Positions 781 through 10,491 of a DNA stretch of 10,491 nt are shown piece by piece. This stretch comes from a virus (lineage: Duplodnaviria; Heunggongvirae; Uroviricota; Caudoviricetes): the IMG/VR virus record IMGVR_UViG_2690316028_000010; one strand, given 5' to 3'. Numbering within the stretch: position 1 is the stretch's first letter; every line of letters starts with the position of its first letter. The position numbers were made by a program, and so were the translations under genes. The notes under the pieces were generated by a model. It saw only the letters and a list, made by a program, of their open reading frames with translations. It had not been told where the DNA came from and ran no database searches.

Positions 781-924
781 AACTTATCCTTGATAATTAT
801 TGTATGGATAGATTATCCAGAAATTTGCGAACTGAGTCGGTCATTTTTTTTTGTGTGCGCGTGATGTAATAAAGGTTCAGGAATATACTGTCAGTTTACT
901 GAAAAACTGGCAACAGAGGCGGTT
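781..924. promoter_or_regulatory. divergent intergenic region between the 259-aa gene (minus) and the 75-aa gene (plus); presumed to hold both promoters
   Basis: 144-bp AT-rich gap with a T9 run (843-851) between two outward-facing start codons. No confident -35/-10 pair could be assigned by eye. Confidence 0.3.
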
Positions 925-1657: not shown

Positions 1658-1690
1658 TGATACACCTTCAATGATTCTTGTTAGTGTGTA

Positions 1691-1699
1691 GGGGGGGGG
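1691..1699 (+). repeat. homopolymeric G9 tract immediately upstream of the 72-aa ORF start
   Basis: Sequence 'gggggggggc' then ATG at 1701. Upstream in-frame stop TAG at 1689-1691 places the tract in the 5' UTR / ribosome-binding region, not inside coding sequence. Confidence 0.9.
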
Positions 1700-1700
1700 C

Positions 1701-1919
1701 ATGTTGGATTTTAAAGCTGAGTTTGTTGGCGGCAGCCATAGCGGCGAGGTTATATCACCGATGTCCGAGGTAGAACTTAATAAACTAGGGTATAGAGTCC
1801 ATTTACGTGGTGCCCCCTCTGGCGATGAAATGCCTGTACACGTTGTTGTACCTATTGAATGGTCAGCGGATGAAGCACACAGAGCCATAATGCAGCGCTG
1901 GGGTAAACGCAGACGGTAG
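1701..1919 (+). CDS. hypothetical small protein, 72 aa, basic C-terminus (WGKRRR)
   Basis: ATG 1701, stop TAG 1917-1919; G-rich SD-like sequence directly upstream. Composition more protein-like than the overlapping minus-strand ORF 1607-1930 (S/P/T-rich). No family recognised. Confidence 0.45.
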   Translation: MLDFKAEFVGGSHSGEVISPMSEVELNKLGYRVHLRGAPSGDEMPVHVVVPIEWSADEAHRAIMQRWGKRRR

Positions 1920-2717: not shown

Positions 2718-3713
2718 ATGACTGACAATGTTTATACCCCTGACCAATTCCGCCCGCACTGGGGCGGTGTAGATGCTGACAACGACATTCACATTGAAGC
2801 GTATGACCGGGACGTTCAGACCCGCCTTGAGGCAAAGAGCGTGTTTCTCGCCGAGGGGCTGAGCACATACAAGCCGCTGAAAAACAGTAATCAGTATCGT
2901 GTAGACCGCCTGAGCGGAGATCTGGAGGTGAAGGGCAGAACCGCAGGGCAATCGCTGGAGCCTACCGCCGTTAAGTCGGACAAGCTGATTATCTCTGTGG
3001 ATACGCTGAGCTATATCCGCATCCCGATTGACTATCAAGACGACTGGACAGCGCCCACCTTTCGCGCAGAGCTGAGCCGCAACATGGGGACAGCCCATGC
3101 AAAGTTCTACGACGAAGCGCACACTATCCAGCTAATCAAAGCGACTGACTTTGTACCGCCGCCTACGTTGCAACCAACGTTTAACCCGCTGACGGATAAT
3201 GTTGTCTCGCTCGACCTGACAACGGGGAGCGAAGAGGATGCGGCTAACGAACTGGTTCACGCTATTAAAGCTGCTGTTAATCGATTCCTAACTGAAAAAG
3301 ATATTCCGGTGGCGGAGCTGTGCCTTCTCATCGACCCAGCTTGGTTCAGCATCCTGATGGAACATAAGAAGTTGATGAACGTCCGTTACAGCCGGGATAG
3401 TGGCAATGATTACGCATGGCGTCGCGTTGGCTATGTCGCTGGGGTGCGAGTTATTGAGCTGAACAGTTACCCGCAGGAAGCCATTACCGCGCATGAACTG
3501 GGCGCTGATTATGATGTGACCGCAGGGGAAGCGCTGACACGGGCGACGCTGTTCCGGCCTGCGTCTGTACTTGTGACAGTCGAAGCGCAGAGCGTTATCA
3601 ATCGCCAGTGGGATGATGAACGCGAAATGACAATGGTGATGGACTCATATCGCCTGTTCAATGTTGGGCTGCGCCGCCCTGACTGCGTTATAAATTTCCG
3701 ACAAGCTGCATAA
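2718..3713 (+). CDS. putative phage major capsid protein (HK97-fold / T7 gp10-like), 331 aa
   Basis: ATG 2718 with SD 'gggag' ~8 nt upstream; stop TAA 3711-3713. Several segments resemble T7-type capsid proteins from memory (e.g. 'IPVAELCLLIDPAWFSILM', C-terminal 'GLRRPDCVINFR'). Followed 17 nt later by an HNH gene, a common capsid-module neighbour. Similarity is by recall, not alignment. Confidence 0.5.
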   Translation: MTDNVYTPDQFRPHWGGVDADNDIHIEAYDRDVQTRLEAKSVFLAEGLSTYKPLKNSNQYRVDRLSGDLEVKGRTAGQSLEPTAVKSDKLIISVDTLSYIRIPIDYQDDWTAPTFRAELSRNMGTAHAKFYDEAHTIQLIKATDFVPPPTLQPTFNPLTDNVVSLDLTTGSEEDAANELVHAIKAAVNRFLTEKDIPVAELCLLIDPAWFSILMEHKKLMNVRYSRDSGNDYAWRRVGYVAGVRVIELNSYPQEAITAHELGADYDVTAGEALTRATLFRPASVLVTVEAQSVINRQWDDEREMTMVMDSYRLFNVGLRRPDCVINFRQAA

Positions 3714-3729: not shown

Positions 3730-4161
3730 ATGAATATTGATGCTTATGCCCCGGAGCTGTTGCGCTCTTTGTTTCGGTACGATGCGAAGACTGGCCGCCT
3801 GTTCCATGCAGTAGACCGGATCGGAGCCAACAAGCGGATTTACGCTAAAGCCGGGGAACTGGCCGACACGGTAACGGACAGCGCCGGATATAGGCGCGTA
3901 TCTGTCCGCATCAATGGCAAATCTCATGCGCTATACGCCCACCGTGTCGCCTTCATCATTGCTAATGACGGTATCCCTGCCGGGATGCAAATCGACCATA
4001 TCAACGCGGTACGCGATGACAACCGCCTTATCAATCTCCGCACGGTTACGCCACAAGAGAACCAGCACAATTACCGCAAAGCCAAGGGTTATAGCCACCA
4101 TGCCTGCTCTGGCAGATGGGAGGCTTACATTCGCGTTGGTGATCCACCGCGCGATAAATAA
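3730..4161 (+). CDS. HNH endonuclease (HNH_3-type, phage-associated), 143 aa
   Basis: ATG 3730 with SD 'aaagggg'; stop TAA 4159-4161. Clear HNH signature 'IDHINAVRDDNRLINLRTVTPQENQHN' and the N-terminal 'GYRRVSVRINGKSHALYAHRVAFI' pattern typical of this family. Confidence 0.85.
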   Translation: MNIDAYAPELLRSLFRYDAKTGRLFHAVDRIGANKRIYAKAGELADTVTDSAGYRRVSVRINGKSHALYAHRVAFIIANDGIPAGMQIDHINAVRDDNRLINLRTVTPQENQHNYRKAKGYSHHACSGRWEAYIRVGDPPRDK

Positions 4162-4200
4162 GCCGCAATCCGTGAGATAAATGGACACGGTGCGGCTTTT
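4161..4200. terminator. bidirectional intrinsic terminator candidate between convergent HNH and tape-measure genes
   Basis: Imperfect hairpin: 'agccgca' (4161-4167) pairs with 'tgcggct' (4191-4197), inner stem 'ccgtg'/'cacgg', followed by TTTT (4197-4200) on plus strand and an A/T-rich run on the other side. Lies in the 66-bp gap between the two converging stop codons. Confidence 0.5.
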
Positions 4201-4227
4201 CAGATACTGCAAAGGAATTACAGATTA

Positions 4228-6711
4228 TCAGTCGTAAGCAACCCGGCGCTTACGGGCAAGGATAGCTTCCAGTGCTCTTTCAATCTCAGGAATGGACAGC
4301 TTAAGCGCATTGGCCACATCCGGTGCTGGTGACTTGTTCTTGCCATCAATATAGATATTGTTAATGACGTTAATCCCGCCGCCTGCGCCTGCTGGTGAAT
4401 GAGAGTCCCGGCCTCTGGGTAAGGTAAGGTCGCCGCGCATATAGCGCTCTAATACGGGGGGTACTTTCGGCACATCCGGCACCATCATATCAGCCAGCCG
4501 CGAGGAGGCTTTCAGCGCCAGTGATGCAGACTGACCAATGCCAATCGCCGCCCCTTCTGCGATATTAGACCCGAAGCCCATAAATACACGGCTTGGCGAG
4601 TGAATCCCCAGCTTTTCCTTGAACCAGCCGCCGACACTGTCACCCATCTCAGTGACGGTATTCTTGAGAGACTCCCACTTGTTTTTGATACCGTTCACCA
4701 GTCCATCAATCAAGTGACCACCAAACTCAGTAAACTGGCCGGGAAGGTCGATGTTAAACCACTTCATGACCCCCGCAAACGCCTTGTAGAACAGCCCCAG
4801 CGGCGACCAGTTCAGGATTAGCTTACTGACACCAAGAACCCCGCCGTTAAAGGCTGTTTTCACTTCCTCCCACCGCTGCGAGAACCATCGGCTTATCGCG
4901 CCCCAGTTGCGGTAAATCAGGTACGCGCCCCCGGCGATGATGGTTATCGCAATGCCTATGGGGTTCATTAACAGCGCCCTGCCAAACCAGAGGAAAGCCT
5001 TTGCCACCACCATTACGCCTCTGAACAGTCCACCCGCCAGCGCTTTACCCAGCATTCCGGCTCCCTTCGCCACGGTACTGAATCCGGTAGCCAGCCAGCG
5101 CAGCTTTCCGCCGTCGCTCAGGGCGGTTTTGAGCAACAGCCAGTTAGTGCGCAGCAGTACGGCGTTTTTCCACAACCCGGCGAACGGTGATACCAGCAGA
5201 TTCAGGCCGAGTTTCAGCCCGACAGTGGCGATTTTCAGCCCCAGCAGTACGCCCACGGTTTTTGCCACACCCTGAACAATGCCGGGATGTTGCGCTATCC
5301 ATTGCCCGGTGGAATGAATCAGCGGAATCAGTTGCTGCGTCATTGACACGAACGAGGGAGACAGTTGACTGCCAAGGGTAATGGACAGTTCGCGGGTGCT
5401 GACCATCAGTGCTTTGGTCGCCTCCAGCGGCGATTTCAGTCGCTCCGTGTAGGAGGAGGCCAGCAGGTCTTTATCCGCCGCCTTAAGTGCGCCAGCCCTG
5501 ATTTCGCGGTATTTGTCCATGTTGGCGAGCATCGGACGGACAAACGCCATGACCTGCATATCGGCGAACATCTCACCCAGACCGAAATTCTTTGCCAGTT
5601 CCTGTAACGCAAGGTCGCGGGAGTTATCGTCCTTGATTTTCATTGCTTTCTTGAAGCCTGCCAGTGCTTCCGGGCTTTTGGCCTCCAGATACCTGCCCAT
5701 GACGCTTATCATGCCCTCAATGGGCGAGACGCCAGCAGATTTATAAGCCATGAGTGACCCCTGAAGGTCAATCCCGATATCGGCAAACTGTTTCTGCGTG
5801 TCGCGGGCAAAAATCTTGGTGAGGAAGTTACGGAAGTTGTTACCAGCCTCGTCAGATGACCCGGCACCAATTCGGGCAATCTGTAAACTCGCTCCGATTT
5901 CCGCCATCGCTTCTTTACCTTCGGCAATACCGCGCATCATCGGGGCAAGAGATGGCATCCATTTCACCTGGTCAGGTATTTCAAAAGACCCTTGGTCGCC
6001 TGCAAAGGCCATGATGTTCTGTACTTTGGCAAACTCTTTAGCGCTGCCATCCATCGAGTTTTTCCAGACGGCGGCAACCTTCGCCCATTCCGTCCCTGTG
6101 GTGCGTGTGGCAGTAGCGGCGCGGGCTATATTGGGCATGAAGCTGCCAATTTCGGACACACTGTCGATATTGTCACTGATAAGCGAGCCTACGGCGTCCT
6201 GTAAGTCGCTCTGGTACTGGTTGTACTTGAGCGACCATCCCCGGATTTGCTGCCCCAGACTGGCGCGGGTTTTATCGTCATATTTCGCCGTGATCGACAT
6301 ATCAATCATCTTGTCGTCGAACGTAGCCGACTGCTGAATCGCCGGGGAAACGAGGCTGTAAGCGGCTTTGGCCTGCGCCCACGTCTCAATTCCCTGTCCA
6401 TAAAGCGCCATCCGGTTAGCTCTCAGGGCATCGGTTGTGGCAGACGCTGCCGACAGGCGGGACTGCTGGCGGTTTAGTTGCTCCAGCGTTCTGCCTACCC
6501 GTTGCAGGTCATTGTTCAGGCGTGAGGCCACGCCTGAACCTACCTGACCGTAACGCTGCATGGCGCGTGACAGGCTGCTTTGTTGCTCGGTCAGGCGGCG
6601 TGACGTGTCGCCGAGAGAATCAAGCGCCCGCCGTGTGCCGCTGACGGCGGAACGGAAGCTGCTCCCGACAATACCGCCAATCATCACACCAACAGAAAAA
6701 TTATTGCTCAT
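4228..6711 (-). CDS. phage tail tape-measure protein, 827 aa
   Basis: ATG 6711-6709 with SD 'ggagtg'; stop at 4228. Helical N-terminal region, long central Gly/Ala/Leu-rich hydrophobic segment, and C-terminal 'GIHSPSRVF'-type motif that I recall from tape-measure proteins. Size is typical. Confidence 0.75.
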   Translation of the reverse strand: MSNNFSVGVMIGGIVGSSFRSAVSGTRRALDSLGDTSRRLTEQQSSLSRAMQRYGQVGSGVASRLNNDLQRVGRTLEQLNRQQSRLSAASATTDALRANRMALYGQGIETWAQAKAAYSLVSPAIQQSATFDDKMIDMSITAKYDDKTRASLGQQIRGWSLKYNQYQSDLQDAVGSLISDNIDSVSEIGSFMPNIARAATATRTTGTEWAKVAAVWKNSMDGSAKEFAKVQNIMAFAGDQGSFEIPDQVKWMPSLAPMMRGIAEGKEAMAEIGASLQIARIGAGSSDEAGNNFRNFLTKIFARDTQKQFADIGIDLQGSLMAYKSAGVSPIEGMISVMGRYLEAKSPEALAGFKKAMKIKDDNSRDLALQELAKNFGLGEMFADMQVMAFVRPMLANMDKYREIRAGALKAADKDLLASSYTERLKSPLEATKALMVSTRELSITLGSQLSPSFVSMTQQLIPLIHSTGQWIAQHPGIVQGVAKTVGVLLGLKIATVGLKLGLNLLVSPFAGLWKNAVLLRTNWLLLKTALSDGGKLRWLATGFSTVAKGAGMLGKALAGGLFRGVMVVAKAFLWFGRALLMNPIGIAITIIAGGAYLIYRNWGAISRWFSQRWEEVKTAFNGGVLGVSKLILNWSPLGLFYKAFAGVMKWFNIDLPGQFTEFGGHLIDGLVNGIKNKWESLKNTVTEMGDSVGGWFKEKLGIHSPSRVFMGFGSNIAEGAAIGIGQSASLALKASSRLADMMVPDVPKVPPVLERYMRGDLTLPRGRDSHSPAGAGGGINVINNIYIDGKNKSPAPDVANALKLSIPEIERALEAILARKRRVAYD

Positions 6712-6742
6712 GGTTCACTCCGGTTGAGTGGTTCGGTGGGCG

Positions 6743-7336
6743 TCATTCAGTCAGGGACAGGCCGCTGATTCCGGTAATCCCGGCAATTTCTTCGCTGACG
6801 GCTGCCAGTTCACTTTCAAGCCCGGTGCGTTCGCTGACCAGTGCCGCCACGGTCTTACGGCGCTCTGCCAGTGAGGGAAGTTTGTCATTACCCCACGTCA
6901 CGCTCTTATCCTTCTTAAGCGCTTCGGTCAGTCGGGTGGCGACCACATCCGGGAAGAAAAAGCAGAGCTTGCGCATTACCGCCATCCCGGTATCAGCCGG
7001 GGGGACGTTTCCTCCCAGCCCCACCAGACGGAACAGACCGGAAATATCGCCGTTCTCATTTTCCAGATTGCCCCAGCGTTCGGCGTTCCCTTCACCGCCG
7101 GAACCGTTGCAAAGAGCACGCTTGAATGACTGATATTCTTCCTGCCCGAATCGCTCAATATATTCAGGAATAAAGGAACAGTAATCATTAAGTGATAACG
7201 GCATATCCTGTAATGCGGTTATTTCGCCATTAATATCACCAATGCGACGAGAGAGCTTTTCTTTCTGCTCATTCAGGGAGGTAAGGTTATTTTTAACGGC
7301 GTTCAGTGCTTCAATGAGGGAAATAACAGGTTTCAT
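6743..7336 (-). CDS. hypothetical protein, 197 aa, coiled-coil-like N- and C-termini; possible scaffold-like or tail-assembly accessory protein
   Basis: ATG 7336-7334 lies 1 nt after the upstream gene's TAA (taaAATG) with SD 'ggag' inside the upstream gene's 3' end; stop TGA 6745-6743. Heptad-like ends; no slippery heptamer seen at the 3' end. Confidence 0.5.
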   Translation of the reverse strand: MKPVISLIEALNAVKNNLTSLNEQKEKLSRRIGDINGEITALQDMPLSLNDYCSFIPEYIERFGQEEYQSFKRALCNGSGGEGNAERWGNLENENGDISGLFRLVGLGGNVPPADTGMAVMRKLCFFFPDVVATRLTEALKKDKSVTWGNDKLPSLAERRKTVAALVSERTGLESELAAVSEEIAGITGISGLSLTE

Positions 7337-7337
7337 T

Positions 7338-7952
7338 TTAATAACTCCAGATAAAAGGTGTAGTGAGGGTGAGCGCTTCGGAATAGGAGACGTTGCAGGC
7401 TTCGCTTACATCCTTTATTAAAAGGTGCTGCGCTGCCCTCTGGCTGTCGGCTATGCCGTCGAGCTCTGAGAAATAAACGTGTGATTCATTGTGACCAAAA
7501 CAAACCGGGTAAGCGCTTTCCATAAACTCCACCTGCTCAAGCCCCTTTACGGCTGGCGGCTGTGCGCCGAGAAAACCAATATGGCGAAGATACCAGGCAC
7601 CAGTTCCGGCCGGGTTACGCGCTTCTCCCGGCCTGTAGAAAGCGGCAGACACTTTTTTATATAGACCTGACTGAACCATATCCAGCAACCTGTTATCAGG
7701 CTTAACCAGCGCGAAAAGTCTGCCGTTTTTACTTATCAGTCCGGTGGTTTCACCATAGGCGGGACTGTTACTGGCCGGATGCCCCAGGCACAGCGGCGCA
7801 CCATAACCCGCGCGATGATAGCCGTTATAGGCTGCTGCCATGTTGTCGATATCCTCGTCGGAAAAGCTGATTTCCTGCCCCGCCATCGCGGTATGTGTTC
7901 CCGCCCGGAATATCTCAATAGTTTTCCAGTTACCAATATTGATATCTGTCAT
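7338..7952 (-). CDS. putative GPO-family prohead protease / capsid scaffolding protein, N-terminal protease-like domain, 204 aa
   Basis: ATG 7952-7950; stop TAA 7340-7338. Recalled resemblance to P2 gpO N-terminus: 'FRAGTHTAMAGQEISFSDEDIDNMAAAY' vs gpO 'FRIGVEGDTCDGRVISAQDIQEMAETF', and 'LCLGH' vs gpO 'INLEH'. Shorter than P2 gpO (~284 aa). Confidence 0.55.
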   Translation of the reverse strand: MTDINIGNWKTIEIFRAGTHTAMAGQEISFSDEDIDNMAAAYNGYHRAGYGAPLCLGHPASNSPAYGETTGLISKNGRLFALVKPDNRLLDMVQSGLYKKVSAAFYRPGEARNPAGTGAWYLRHIGFLGAQPPAVKGLEQVEFMESAYPVCFGHNESHVYFSELDGIADSQRAAQHLLIKDVSEACNVSYSEALTLTTPFIWSY

Positions 7953-7953
7953 T

Positions 7954-8481
7954 TTATATTTGTCCCTGTTTCATATCGCGGCACTCTTTGTTTTTCTTAC
8001 GCTCGGCGGCAATAATCTGATAAATCCACTGAATAGAATTGCCATATTTCCTGGCTAATTCCCGATGAGTCATCCCTTGTTTGTAATCGGAAAATATCCT
8101 GGCATTTCTGTCGAAAGAGTTTCTGGCTGCGCCATTAGGTATATAGAAATTGTTACCTTTAAAGACCCTTCTAAGGTGTTCTGTAATTTCCGGGGAAATG
8201 ATTTCGGCCTGAGCCGAAAAGCAATGTATTGTAAGCAAAGCCTGCGCTATCACACCTGTAAGCTCATGCAGAAAAGATGTTGCTTTAGGGGCGTCTTCAC
8301 ATTCTATTGGCATGTAATTCTGGCAACCACCAAGATTATCAGATATATGCAAAACAATTTTATTTGCTGCACTACTTGCCTGAAGTTGTGAATAGCCCGC
8401 ATCAGTCAGAAAATCTTCAATCGCATCCCCCATTTCCCCCAGAGTGTCAGATGTTGCGTACAATCCCTCTCTTGTAATCAT
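7954..8481 (-). CDS. Mor/C-family transcriptional activator (Mu middle/late activator family), ~175 aa from ATG 8481
   Basis: C-terminal region matches the Mor pattern: 'NFYIPNGAARNSF' (cf. Mor 'QVYIPRG'), 'RIFSDYKQGMTHRELARKYGNSIQWIYQIIAAERKK' (HTH). ATG 8481-8479 has SD 'gagg' ~7 nt upstream; the ORF-track start at 8487 is a GTG too close to the SD. Stop TAA 7956-7954, 1 nt before the next gene's start. Confidence 0.75.
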   Translation of the reverse strand: MITREGLYATSDTLGEMGDAIEDFLTDAGYSQLQASSAANKIVLHISDNLGGCQNYMPIECEDAPKATSFLHELTGVIAQALLTIHCFSAQAEIISPEITEHLRRVFKGNNFYIPNGAARNSFDRNARIFSDYKQGMTHRELARKYGNSIQWIYQIIAAERKKNKECRDMKQGQI

Positions 8482-8509
8482 AATCACACCTCGGTAATGA
8501 TAAAGATGT

Positions 8510-8614
8510 GCGCTAAAAAGGCTTTATAAAGCTTTATGAGGCGTCTTTCTGGTGACAAATCAGCACATACACCATTAACGCTTTAAAATGGCTTACAGGC
8601 TTTTTTAGCGCGGG
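8510..8614. promoter_or_regulatory. regulatory region upstream of the Mor-like gene: 12-bp palindrome, tandem 'gctttat' and flanking 10-bp inverted repeats
   Basis: 'ataaagctttat' perfect palindrome at 8526-8537; 'gctttat' at 8521-8527 and 8531-8537. 'gcgctaaaaa' (8510-8519) is the inverse of 'tttttagcgc' (8602-8611). Promoter hexamers not confidently assigned. Confidence 0.35.
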
Positions 8615-8681
8615 TTACTAATGTGGATTAAGAATATGGTTTTGGGGCGGGGATGTTTTTTAATGTACTTTAGATATGAAG

Positions 8682-8703
8682 AAGCCCCTCAGAGGAGGGG
8701 CTT
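8682..8703. terminator. GC-rich hairpin (9-bp stem, 4-nt loop) immediately downstream of the 96-aa gene; candidate intrinsic terminator
   Basis: 'aagcccctc' (8682-8690) pairs perfectly with 'gaggggctt' (8695-8703), loop 'agag'. Sits 17 nt past the TAA at 8722-8720; the flanking run on the minus-strand transcript is only moderately U-rich. Confidence 0.45.
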
Positions 8704-8719
8704 GCGGGATTACGCCAGA

Positions 8720-9010
8720 TTATTGAGGTCGTCTGTCTTTCCTCAATCCATCAAGTAGCGCCATGGCATCAGTAACCAGTATGCCAGCAGCATCCGTAAC
8801 CATCGAAACATCAGAGGATGCACATGATTTATCCATACCTAATGTTGACGCAAAATCAAGTAGCTTACGAACTGCGTCAAGTCGATAGGTGGCAGAGTCG
8901 TAAATTAACTCCTGATTAGCATCAGTCTTTAAAAACATAATATCATCAGAGGCACCTTGCGAAAATGACGGCATCGCACGGAAAGTATTTTGAGTTTCAG
9001 CCTGTTTCAT
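8720..9010 (-). CDS. hypothetical protein, 96 aa
   Basis: ATG 9010-9008 overlaps the upstream gene's TGA (ATGA, coupling); SD 'ggagg' ~8 nt upstream; stop TAA 8722-8720. Confidence 0.5.
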   Translation of the reverse strand: MKQAETQNTFRAMPSFSQGASDDIMFLKTDANQELIYDSATYRLDAVRKLLDFASTLGMDKSCASSDVSMVTDAAGILVTDAMALLDGLRKDRRPQ

Positions 9011-9744
9011 TGTGCAGTCCTCCGGCTAATAGCGAATTTATTATAAACTTCATAACTGGCAGCATTCAGTCCGGGGTTGTATTTATCAGCCAGAGCACAG
9101 GCAATCATATGTTCAATAAATTTTGTTATTGCGTTAAGTTCAGTTTCGTTTGAATAACGCAATGCCACTTTGAGTAACTCGCGGCAATATTGTTTTTTAT
9201 TCCCTTCGATTTGGCCTGATTTTTTTATTCCTGCCTTTTTATCTGATTCATCCTCAACAGGCAAAGATGGGATATCCTCTTTATTGGTTAGCGTTCTTTC
9301 GCAAATAATATCTTCACCAGATTGAATTACGCGCTGCAACTCTCTGGCGCTCATACGAAGAATATCATCAAGCGTGTGGTCGTTATATGCCCCACCACTG
9401 GCAAGGAGATCCAGTGTCACTTCATCCAGCCGGGCAAGCAGGTTTAACTTCGTTTTGCCGATACTTGTTTTGGCAATTGCGGCTCGGGGGGTATTGGTTA
9501 CGCCAAATATCAGAGCAACCCGCATAGCATTATGGGCTTCACGTTTATTAATTCCCCCCACTGAAAGCGCCTTTGCAAATTCCTCATTTGTTTTTGTTGC
9601 TTCCTTAAGTGCCAGCATCTCTTTACCACGATGCACTAAAGTTTCAGTCGGGGTTGGCAAAAGGAGTACAGCATCTAAAATTTTTTCCCGAAGTACATCA
9701 ACTTGGCTTGCGATGCATGAACGGTTAGACTTGTTGATACCCAT
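9007..9744 (-). CDS. hypothetical protein, ~245 aa from ATG 9744 (ORF track begins at TTG 9765); candidate early/regulatory protein
   Basis: ATG 9744-9742 preceded by SD 'gagga' ~9 nt upstream; stop TGA 9009-9007. Acidic/Lys-rich linker mid-protein; no P-loop or other catalytic motif recognised. Divergent from the RHH gene. Confidence 0.5.
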   Translation of the reverse strand: MGINKSNRSCIASQVDVLREKILDAVLLLPTPTETLVHRGKEMLALKEATKTNEEFAKALSVGGINKREAHNAMRVALIFGVTNTPRAAIAKTSIGKTKLNLLARLDEVTLDLLASGGAYNDHTLDDILRMSARELQRVIQSGEDIICERTLTNKEDIPSLPVEDESDKKAGIKKSGQIEGNKKQYCRELLKVALRYSNETELNAITKFIEHMIACALADKYNPGLNAASYEVYNKFAISRRTAQ

Positions 9745-9774
9745 GATTGTTATCCTCAATAACAATGGTGGTCA

Positions 9775-9809
9775 GGCAGGATGTGATACTGAACCTATCA
9801 TGTCCTGCC
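9775..9809. promoter_or_regulatory. imperfect dyad symmetry (13-bp arms, 11/13 matching, 9-bp spacer) upstream of the 245-aa gene
   Basis: 'ggcaggatgtgat' (9775-9787) vs 'atcatgtcctgcc' (9797-9809). Could be an operator or a 5'-UTR hairpin of the minus-strand transcript. Confidence 0.3.
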
Positions 9810-9840
9810 GCTTGCGGTTTTACATCTACTTAATGTAATG

Positions 9841-9877
9841 TACGTACCATTGATTTCAATCTAAACAATGGTACGTA
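9841..9877. promoter_or_regulatory. perfect 12-bp inverted repeat with 13-bp spacer (candidate operator) overlapping the RHH gene start codon
   Basis: 'tacgtaccattg' (9841-9852) and its exact reverse complement 'caatggtacgta' (9866-9877). The right arm covers the ATG at 9868-9870. Located in the divergent promoter region. Confidence 0.55.
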
Positions 9878-10071
9878 TCATGTCAAGAGTAAAAGATAAC
9901 ACGCCTAAAAATTCCGCAGGGCGTTCCCCGACCTTCCAAATACGTATTACACCTGAACTTAGGGAACAGCTTGATAAAGAAGCTCTTAAAGATGGTGTAA
10001 GTTTGGCCAATTGGCTCAAAGGCATTGCACGAGATGAACTACGCAGGAGAGGTATTTCTCCAAAAGGGTAG
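9868..10071 (+). CDS. ribbon-helix-helix (Arc/MetJ-like) DNA-binding protein, 67 aa; putative repressor
   Basis: 'FQIRITPELREQLDKEALKDGVSLANWLKGIARDEL' fits the RHH beta-strand plus two helices (cf. Arc 'FNLRWPREVLDLVRKVAEENGRSVNSEIYQRVMESF'). ATG 9868 (alternative ATG 9880), both with weak SD; stop TAG 10069-10071. Confidence 0.6.
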   Translation: MVRIMSRVKDNTPKNSAGRSPTFQIRITPELREQLDKEALKDGVSLANWLKGIARDELRRRGISPKG

Positions 10072-10086
10072 GGCTAATCAGGTACA

Positions 10087-10476
10087 AAAAGCGAAAACGT
10101 TTTCGCTTTTATGGCTAAGAGAGCGGATGCACTCATTAAAGCGGACAGCGCTGTCCGCCTCCAATCAGCAAAAAAACAAGATGGTTCCTCCAAAACGCTC
10201 AACGTTGAGCGTTACGTTATTCCGACAAAAGCGCAGGCGCTTGCGCTTTTGAAAGGGATCAACACGGCTTTCAAACCGGACAACGTTGACCGCTTTAAGG
10301 AATCACTGTCGGCTGAGCAAAAACGGCAAGCGCTTGCCGTTTTAGATTCGCGGGGCGGTAAACGTTTACCGTTCTGTGTCAATTATGTTCAAAAGCGAAA
10401 GCGCTTTCGCATTTTCTCACCTAAAGCGGCAAACCTCCTCTGTCTTAGCTGGAAAAACGACATCGCTGTCGTTTTT
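10087..10476. repeat. array of eight hairpin-capable palindromes of one family (A-tract, CG-rich core, T-tract)
   Basis: P1 10087-10110 aaaagcgaaaac|gttttcgctttt (perfect, 24 bp); P2 10141-10158 gcggacagc|gctgtccgc (perfect); P3 10194-10213 aacgctcaac|gttgagcgtt (perfect); P4 10227-10250 (1 mismatch); P5 10320-10343 aaaacggcaagc|gcttgccgtttt (perfect); P6 10356-10371 cggtaaac|gtttaccg (perfect); P7 10391-10414 (1 mismatch); P8 10453-10476 aaaaacgaca-tcgc-tgtcgttttt. Symmetry kept while sequence differs between copies. Confidence 0.85.
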
Positions 10477-10491
10477 AATCCGAGGTTCTAA
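10111..10491 (+). CDS. ORF of 126 aa overlapping the palindrome array; coding status doubtful
   Basis: ATG 10111 directly after palindrome P1, stop TAA 10489-10491 at window end. Repeated peptide motifs (KAQALALL, KRQALAVL, KRKRFRIF) are direct consequences of the DNA palindromes, so the frame may be open by chance. Confidence 0.3.
   Translation: MAKRADALIKADSAVRLQSAKKQDGSSKTLNVERYVIPTKAQALALLKGINTAFKPDNVDRFKESLSAEQKRQALAVLDSRGGKRLPFCVNYVQKRKRFRIFSPKAANLLCLSWKNDIAVVFNPRF

Follow-up and report, generated by a model that had tools for sequence, protein, structure and literature searches.

Does a run of nine G's just ahead of a small open reading frame (ORF) change in length by slippage, and would such changes alter how much of the encoded protein is made? 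This question was raised by positions 1691 to 1919 of the stretch of viral DNA studied here, the whole of which (10,491 nucleotides) we call the window. We found that the run has changed length several times among natural copies of the locus. The reading that we favor, to which we give a probability of roughly 0.55, is that the run is a slippage-prone simple-sequence repeat (SSR) that acts as the Shine-Dalgarno (SD) sequence of a real 72-aa gene and would tune its translation.

The G-run and the small gene behind it

The G9 homopolymer occupies positions 1691 to 1699 on the plus strand and is followed by C1700 and by an ATG at 1701 to 1703. The local sequence reads ...GTTAGTGTGTA GGGGGGGGG C ATG TTG GAT... 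and, over a longer stretch, 5'-...TTCTTGTTAGTGTGTA-GGGGGGGGG-C-ATG TTG GAT TTT AAA...-3'. The initial annotation had described the run as directly abutting the start codon; the nine G's are indeed present, but C1700 intervenes. Its view that the run forms the ribosome-binding region of the 72-aa ORF agrees with our reading, the run being the sole SD-like sequence before the ATG. According to the ORF list, the ORF itself extends from 1701 to 1919 (plus strand) and encodes 72 residues. An in-frame TTG at 1704 to 1706, on the same strand, is a possible alternative start when the tract is short, as suggested by a gene caller and by the model described below.

The ORF belongs to a conserved 986-bp module (1149 to 2134), which is 94 to 98% identical across loci with unrelated upstream cargo. 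All its parts lie on the plus strand: an ORF of 153 aa with an N-terminal hydrophobic segment (1149 to 1610), a conserved 80-nt intergenic leader (1611 to 1690) that together with the tract measures 90 nt, the 72-aa ORF and a conserved non-coding tail (1920 to 2134). A 107-aa ORF on the minus strand (1607 to 1930), antisense to a gene with homologues, was treated as spurious.

We then asked how unusual such a run is. It is the sole G/C run of 7 nt or more in the whole window, and the T9 run at 844 to 852 is the sole other run of 9 nt. In dinucleotide shuffles, 0.28 matches to G8 or longer were expected per window, and the two overlapping matches observed were equalled or exceeded in 10 of 200 shuffles. 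An analytic estimate based on a first-order Markov model gave 0.047 G/C runs of at least 9 nt for the window and 0.003 for positions 1 to 2231. Taken alone, the G9 run is only marginally unusual, with a p of about 0.05 per window. The co-occurrence of two runs of at least 9 nt in the 2.2-kb block at 1 to 2231, where 0.05 such runs are expected, has a P of about 0.001 by the Markov estimate.

The exact 72-aa protein is indexed in 1025 blocks of a public collection, the cluster table lists 640 contigs that encode it, and its 90% cluster contains, besides E. coli, annotated proteins of Kosakonia oryzae, K. radicincitans and K. arachidis. An exhaustive HMMER search returned eight distant representatives of 71 to 80 aa with 34 to 46% identity, and a profile search added homologues from Hydrogenophaga and Cellvibrionaceae; overall, the remote homologues are 34 to 55% identical to the 72-aa protein. 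Six residues (F8, G11, G30, Y31, E43 and P51) do not vary across the family alignment, and AlphaFold, given an alignment of 17 sequences, predicted a confident beta-beta-alpha-beta-beta-alpha fold (pLDDT, 90.4). Judged by its homologues and by this predicted fold, the 72-aa ORF is a real gene, and its product is a bona fide member of a small uncharacterized protein family of 71 to 80 aa. Comparison within the enterobacterial clade revealed 8 non-synonymous and 3 synonymous differences in the ORF, without a sign of purifying selection. Its coding status is therefore carried by the distant homologues and the fold, not by dN/dS, and by the same token the level at which it is expressed may not matter much.

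Database searches gave few leads as to function. The 72-, 75- and 153-aa proteins of the block had no match in Pfam, PHROGs, PADLOC or NCBIfam, and the sole match of the neighboring 259-aa protein was phrog_19541, the function of which is unannotated. The 72-aa fold had no significant structural neighbor in PDB or BFVD and no profile neighbor. We found no conserved partner gene among the remote homologues and no description of the locus or of the protein family in the literature. Pattern and profile scans of viral contigs gave no match, the phage collection yielded a single match, to a tape-measure at 73%, and K. arachidis was the sole match in a collection holding one genome per species. The remote homologues have ordinary SDs (GGAG, AGGTG and GGGGGTG) located 6 to 7 nt from the ATG, so the G-run is an SD derivative specific to the enterobacterial clade.

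Length variation among natural copies

We compared 29 copies of the locus, 28 of them beyond the window, from E. coli, Kosakonia and metagenomes. The run measured G5 in 2 copies, G6 in 10, G7 in 1, G8 in 8, G9 in 7 and G10 in 1, while its flanks, TTCTTGTTAGTGTGTA and CATGTTGGATTTTAAAGC, were almost invariant. In an alignment of 580 columns, the tract was the sole indel site, with the exception of contig L017, which carries two other 1-bp deletions; this contig is also the only aligned copy in which the 153-aa frame is not intact. On a neighbor-joining tree built from 837 flanking columns, at least six independent changes in tract length had to be placed, and the 837 columns themselves underwent 74 changes in total, i.e., 0.09 per column. 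Moreover, E. coli copies with zero substitutions over 2231 bp differed from each other at the G-run (G8 or G9) and at the T-run only. Among all runs of 4 nt or more in positions 1 to 2231, the two 9-mers were the only ones to differ between zero-substitution copies, and the three 6-mers were identical. The T6 runs at 41, 447 and 957 are stable.

The initial annotation had called tracts of nine G's hypermutable by slipped-strand mispairing, and the range of lengths between near-invariant flanks, together with the number of changes on the tree, bears this out. It had also proposed to check whether the length is invariant in related genomes; it varies, even between copies that have accumulated no substitution over 2.2 kb. 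We conclude that the G-run is truly slippage-prone in nature.

The distribution of the alleles gives some indication of their history. G6 is the commonest allele and occurs in three separate clades, and it is probably ancestral; G8-G9 arose in two separate clades of the tree. Modal alleles are stable within haplotypes, and 7 of the 11 copies of the E. coli haplotype carry G9, which argues against very fast switching. One G5 and the sole G10 of this haplotype were found on contigs with a coverage of about 1.8x or less, and one of these low-coverage copies also carries a change of the ATG to AAG. One haplotype (L005 and L040, in which position 640 is homologous to 1701) pairs G6 with a GTG start instead of ATG.

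Indel rates in E. coli climb exponentially with run length, and G:C runs of 8 bp are already outliers in K-12 (PMC8510543). SSR contingency loci are nominated on the basis of length, of placement in expression signals and of variation among close relatives (PMC5084427). At the present locus, the uninterrupted run of nine G's lies above the length of about 7 to 8 at which G/C runs are held to be hypermutable, repeat number is polymorphic among close relatives with conserved flanks, and the repeat is placed in the ribosome-binding site, ending 1 nt before the ATG. On these sequence features, including variation within a clone-like group, the locus qualifies for nomination as an SSR contingency locus.

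Predicted effect on translation and competing readings

To estimate initiation, we used a crude model in which the 16S 3' end pairs without gaps, spacing carries a Salis-type penalty, and further terms account for the start codon and for local folding. The best predicted anti-SD partner, UAGGGGGG (1689 to 1696, plus strand), lies at the 5' end of the run and forms an uninterrupted stretch of 8 pairs with the 16S 3' end, including three G-U pairs. Because this partner is pinned at the 5' end, each added G amounts to one extra nucleotide of spacing in the model. Relative initiation at ATG 1701 was predicted to be below 0.05 for G5 to G7, 0.2 for G8, 1.1 for G9, 3.4 for G10 and 6 to 8 for G11 and G12, and the modelled rate at TTG 1704 was low (about 0.1 to 0.4) and nearly flat across tract lengths. 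The model hence predicts graded tuning, several-fold per step, rather than an ON/OFF effect. The claim of the initial annotation that length changes would alter the SD-to-ATG spacing is thus reproduced by a simple thermodynamic model, the consequence for expression being, for its part, a modelled one.

An independent gene caller picked the TTG, giving a 71-aa product (MDFK...), in the G6 contigs L019 to L021, and this choice is consistent with the model. The same locus is accordingly called as a 71-aa gene (TTG) or as a 72-aa gene depending on tract length, and the site flags a disagreement between assemblies and gene callers (ATG versus TTG, 72 versus 71 aa).

Folding may counteract the gain in spacing. 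In a predicted fold of a 220-nt transcript, the G-run and the AUG pair with GUGCCCCCUCU in the ORF (about 1809 to 1819; z = -3.4), and the anti-SD-like CCCCCUCU within the ORF is the predicted long-range partner. The cost of opening this structure increased from 16 to 22 kcal/mol as the run lengthened, so that the SD and the AUG are predicted to be more tightly sequestered in longer runs, offsetting part of the spacing gain. Since the spacing and structure terms are opposed, the sign and the size of the net effect are uncertain. A hairpin is also predicted in the leader (1627 to 1667; core CCCAGCG-UAGU-UGCUGGG). Neither this hairpin nor the pairing of the G-run with CCCCCUCU has covariation support, as sequence identity stands at 98% and none of the few changes is compensatory, and a scan of the whole window against Rfam at gathering thresholds returned no family. 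An ON/OFF switch by frameshift was considered and rejected: the run lies upstream of the ATG, and the 72-aa frame is intact at every tract length. A change in length does no more than open or close a short frame upstream, which gives an N-terminal extension of 8 to 9 residues with G7 or G10.

According to the reading that we favor, the best 16S pairing would stay pinned to the 5' end of the run, the 3' end of which lies 1 nt from the ATG, and the gain or loss of a G by replication slippage would place the SD one nucleotide farther from or nearer to the ATG. With G5 to G7, the spacing would be too short and initiation at the ATG weak, and the TTG at +3 may then serve as the start; from G8 to G11, the spacing would approach its optimum. 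The outcome would be a heritable, reversible and graded variation in translation, that is, a rheostat with several-fold changes per step. This makes the locus a plausible but unproven new SSR expression modulator. What speaks against this reading is that G6 is both the commonest and probably the ancestral allele, the gene persisting with what would be a "bad" spacing.

The prevalence and probable ancestry of G6 also fit another reading, which we consider possible if on the unlikely side, namely, that a G-rich SD (AGGGGG) seeded a hypermutable microsatellite in dispensable cargo and that its changes in length have no meaningful effect on either expression or fitness. The 8 non-synonymous versus 3 synonymous differences, devoid of a purifying-selection signal in the clade, point the same way, as do the opposite pulls of the spacing and structure terms and the decay of the cargo block in the window, which has suffered a 5.9-kb deletion and an insertion into its HNH gene. 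However, the modelled spacing shifts, from about 0-1 to 4-5 nt, fall within the range over which initiation in E. coli is very sensitive. Furthermore, expansion to G8-9 took place in two separate clades, and a second variable tract is found in the promoter region of the same block, the pair seeming to exceed coincidence (P of about 0.001).

It is improbable that the length of the run acts instead on transcription, by way of a start site inside the G-run that would give a near-leaderless mRNA, possibly with reiterative addition of G's, so that start-site choice or slippage would be affected. By eye, a weak extended -10-like sequence, TGtTAGTGT (TGnTAnnnT), can be discerned at 1679 to 1687, with a -35-like GTGATA (GTGACA in other haplotypes) 19 bp upstream. 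A C directly follows the run, as at pyrG of Bacillus subtilis, where G's are added reiteratively at GGGC. In addition, the module starts at the start codon of the 153-aa ORF and so has no conserved promoter of its own upstream. Nevertheless, a consensus scan of positions 780 to 2750 found no sigma-70-type promoter, a spacer of 19 bp is unfavorable, the K. arachidis copies have lost the TG of the motif (TTATTAGTGT), and SD-led initiation is ordinary in the remote homologues. The scan of 780 to 2750 also returned three terminator-like sites, none of which is near the tract.

Least credible of all is that homopolymer errors of sequencing or assembly produced the run or its length differences: the G10 allele (L022) and the two G5 alleles (L023 and L017) do come from contigs of 1.6 to 2x coverage, and these outlier contigs show other oddities (ATG to AAG; extra 1-bp deletions), but haplotypes with several members, which come from different genera and projects, are fixed for G6, for G8 or for G9. 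G9 with the same flanks is present in the complete genome of E. coli VREC0864, which is 100% identical to the window over positions 1 to 2231, and in five further independent assemblies, and in all G9 is reproduced in 7 independent assemblies; the artefact alternative entertained by the initial annotation thus fails as regards the existence of the run. Two G8 copies, L007 and L026, lie on contigs of 204 kb and 119 kb, and in both the T-run is the sole other indel over 2.2 kb, in which 38 runs of 4 to 6 nt show none. We exclude an artefact as the origin of the run itself and of its G6, G8 and G9 classes, whereas the G10 and G5 alleles on the low-coverage contigs may contain errors.

Homopolymers in expression signals are found in Treponema pallidum (tpr poly-G) and in Bordetella (fim poly-C). 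In Neisseria meningitidis, porA has a poly-G between -35 and -10, as cited within PMC11898584. Like these promoter-tract loci, the present locus has a G/C homopolymer above the mutability threshold in an upstream control region; as in SSR contingency loci (PMC5084427), its length differs among close relatives and graded expression is expected. Tracts of the porA type alter promoter geometry and transcription, whereas the present tract constitutes the SD itself, ends 1 nt before the ATG and is not flanked by a promoter consensus. The setting differs as well: the host is a mismatch-repair-proficient enterobacterium, in which such loci are rare, and the gene is cargo of a mobile island.

The nearest mechanistic precedent that we found is espR of M. 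tuberculosis, in which one additional G in a poly-G of the 5' untranslated region (5'UTR) raises translation efficiency, an experimentally tested effect that was attributed to a change in how accessible the ribosome-binding site is (PMC11898584). In both cases an indel in a G-run of the 5'UTR leaves the reading frame unaltered. In espR, however, the run occupies the 5' end of a long UTR and exerts its effect via RNA folding, whereas here the run is the SD and is predicted to act through spacing first. The locus is also reminiscent of the start-proximal VNSSRs of N. meningitidis (PMC5084427), in that tract length may select between ATG 1701 and TTG 1704 and may set the efficiency of the start that is used. 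The Neisseria repeat is located inside the frame, between ATGs, and causes a frameshift; ours is upstream of both starts and changes no frame. Finally, a G-run tied to stochastic expression of mobile or defense-type cargo recalls phase-variable anti-phage systems such as the Pgl/BREX system of Streptomyces, with its G-tract in pglX, and phase-variable restriction-modification mod genes. The tracts of these systems are intragenic ON/OFF frameshift switches, unlike the present run, which is upstream of the 72-aa frame.

Assuming that our model is right, the locus would be one more of the already known SSR-variable expression signals, set apart by the uncommon fact that the repeat is the SD. Expression variation driven by SSRs is textbook knowledge in Neisseria, Haemophilus, Campylobacter and Helicobacter and has seldom been documented in E. 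coli. An SD that is itself a mutable repeat would, if true, be a compact natural "RBS-spacing rheostat." Together with the adjacent second variable tract, its presence in mobile cargo could show how mobile elements create heterogeneity of expression, perhaps of anti-phage genes.

The second variable tract and the surrounding island

The second length-polymorphic homopolymer is the T-run at 844 to 852 (plus strand), which lies in a 144-bp divergent intergenic region between the gene for the 259-aa protein, which starts at 780 on the minus strand, and the 75-aa ORF, which starts at 925. Among E. coli copies otherwise identical over 2.2 kb, it measures T9, as in the window, T11 or T12. All four combinations of T11 or T12 with G8 or G9 exist, from which it follows that at least one of the two tracts changed recurrently. 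Seen from the minus strand, the A-run lies just upstream of a -35/-10-like pair (CCGACT ... GATAAT, identified by eye), in the position of an UP element.

The relation that we draw between the T-run and the G-run comes solely from their co-location and shared behavior. We regard it as doubtful that both homopolymers jointly exert contingency control over a four-gene cargo block, producing stochastic and heritable expression states with the ribosome-binding site as a mutable element. The block in question encodes the 259-aa, 75-aa, 153-aa (membrane) and 72-aa proteins and sits on a satellite-like island shared between E. coli and Kosakonia. Were such joint control real, it would possibly gate a costly phage-exclusion or defense function and would represent a rare case of SSR phase or rheostat variation in a mismatch-repair-proficient enterobacterium. 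In relatives, the neighborhoods of the module contain Shedu (SduA_C), type I restriction-modification and ThsB-TIR genes. As the module itself has no match in PADLOC, Pfam, PHROGs or NCBIfam, a defense role is pure conjecture.

In VREC0864 (NZ_LR536431.1), the block is located directly downstream of a tRNA-Gly gene, next to actS, and forms the cargo end of an integrative island of roughly 14 kb (L001, 8598 to 21332; counterpart in the window, 2718 to 3713). GCA_030199775.1 is another carrier of the locus. Beyond the cargo, the island carries genes for a serine recombinase and a DEAD/DEAH helicase, small ORFs, a gene for a solitary major-head-like protein (phrog_267), HNH and endonuclease-VII-like genes, and a tyrosine integrase gene. 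Other E. coli strains, E2348/69 among them, harbor sister islands at tRNA-Leu. The annotation of the island includes neither a portal nor a terminase, and the island looks like a phage satellite of a type that we could assign to no named family.

In intact islands, the module always lies a few hundred base pairs upstream of the serine recombinase (resolvase) gene. This gene is deleted in the window, where a 5.9-kb segment comprising the serine recombinase gene, the DEAD/DEAH helicase gene and about 8 small genes is missing at a 3-bp overlap (2229 to 2231). About a hundred complete E. coli genomes share, at about 96% conservation, a non-coding element of roughly 135 bp that lies at 2092 to 2224 in the window. 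In the loci inspected, the element closely precedes the serine recombinase gene of the island, and the deletion in the window begins right after it; the element could be a recombinase site or a promoter.

Farther downstream, at about 4140, the end of a different element cuts the HNH gene short. Positions 4140 to 10491 correspond to the end of a Mu-like or transposable-phage-like remnant, with genes for a tape-measure protein (4228 to 6711, minus strand), a head-maturation-protease-like protein, Mor and a HicB-like protein. This remnant is 93% identical to an insertion of roughly 7.7 kb that interrupts ynbC in E. coli AW1.7, indicating that the same element occupies different chromosomal sites.
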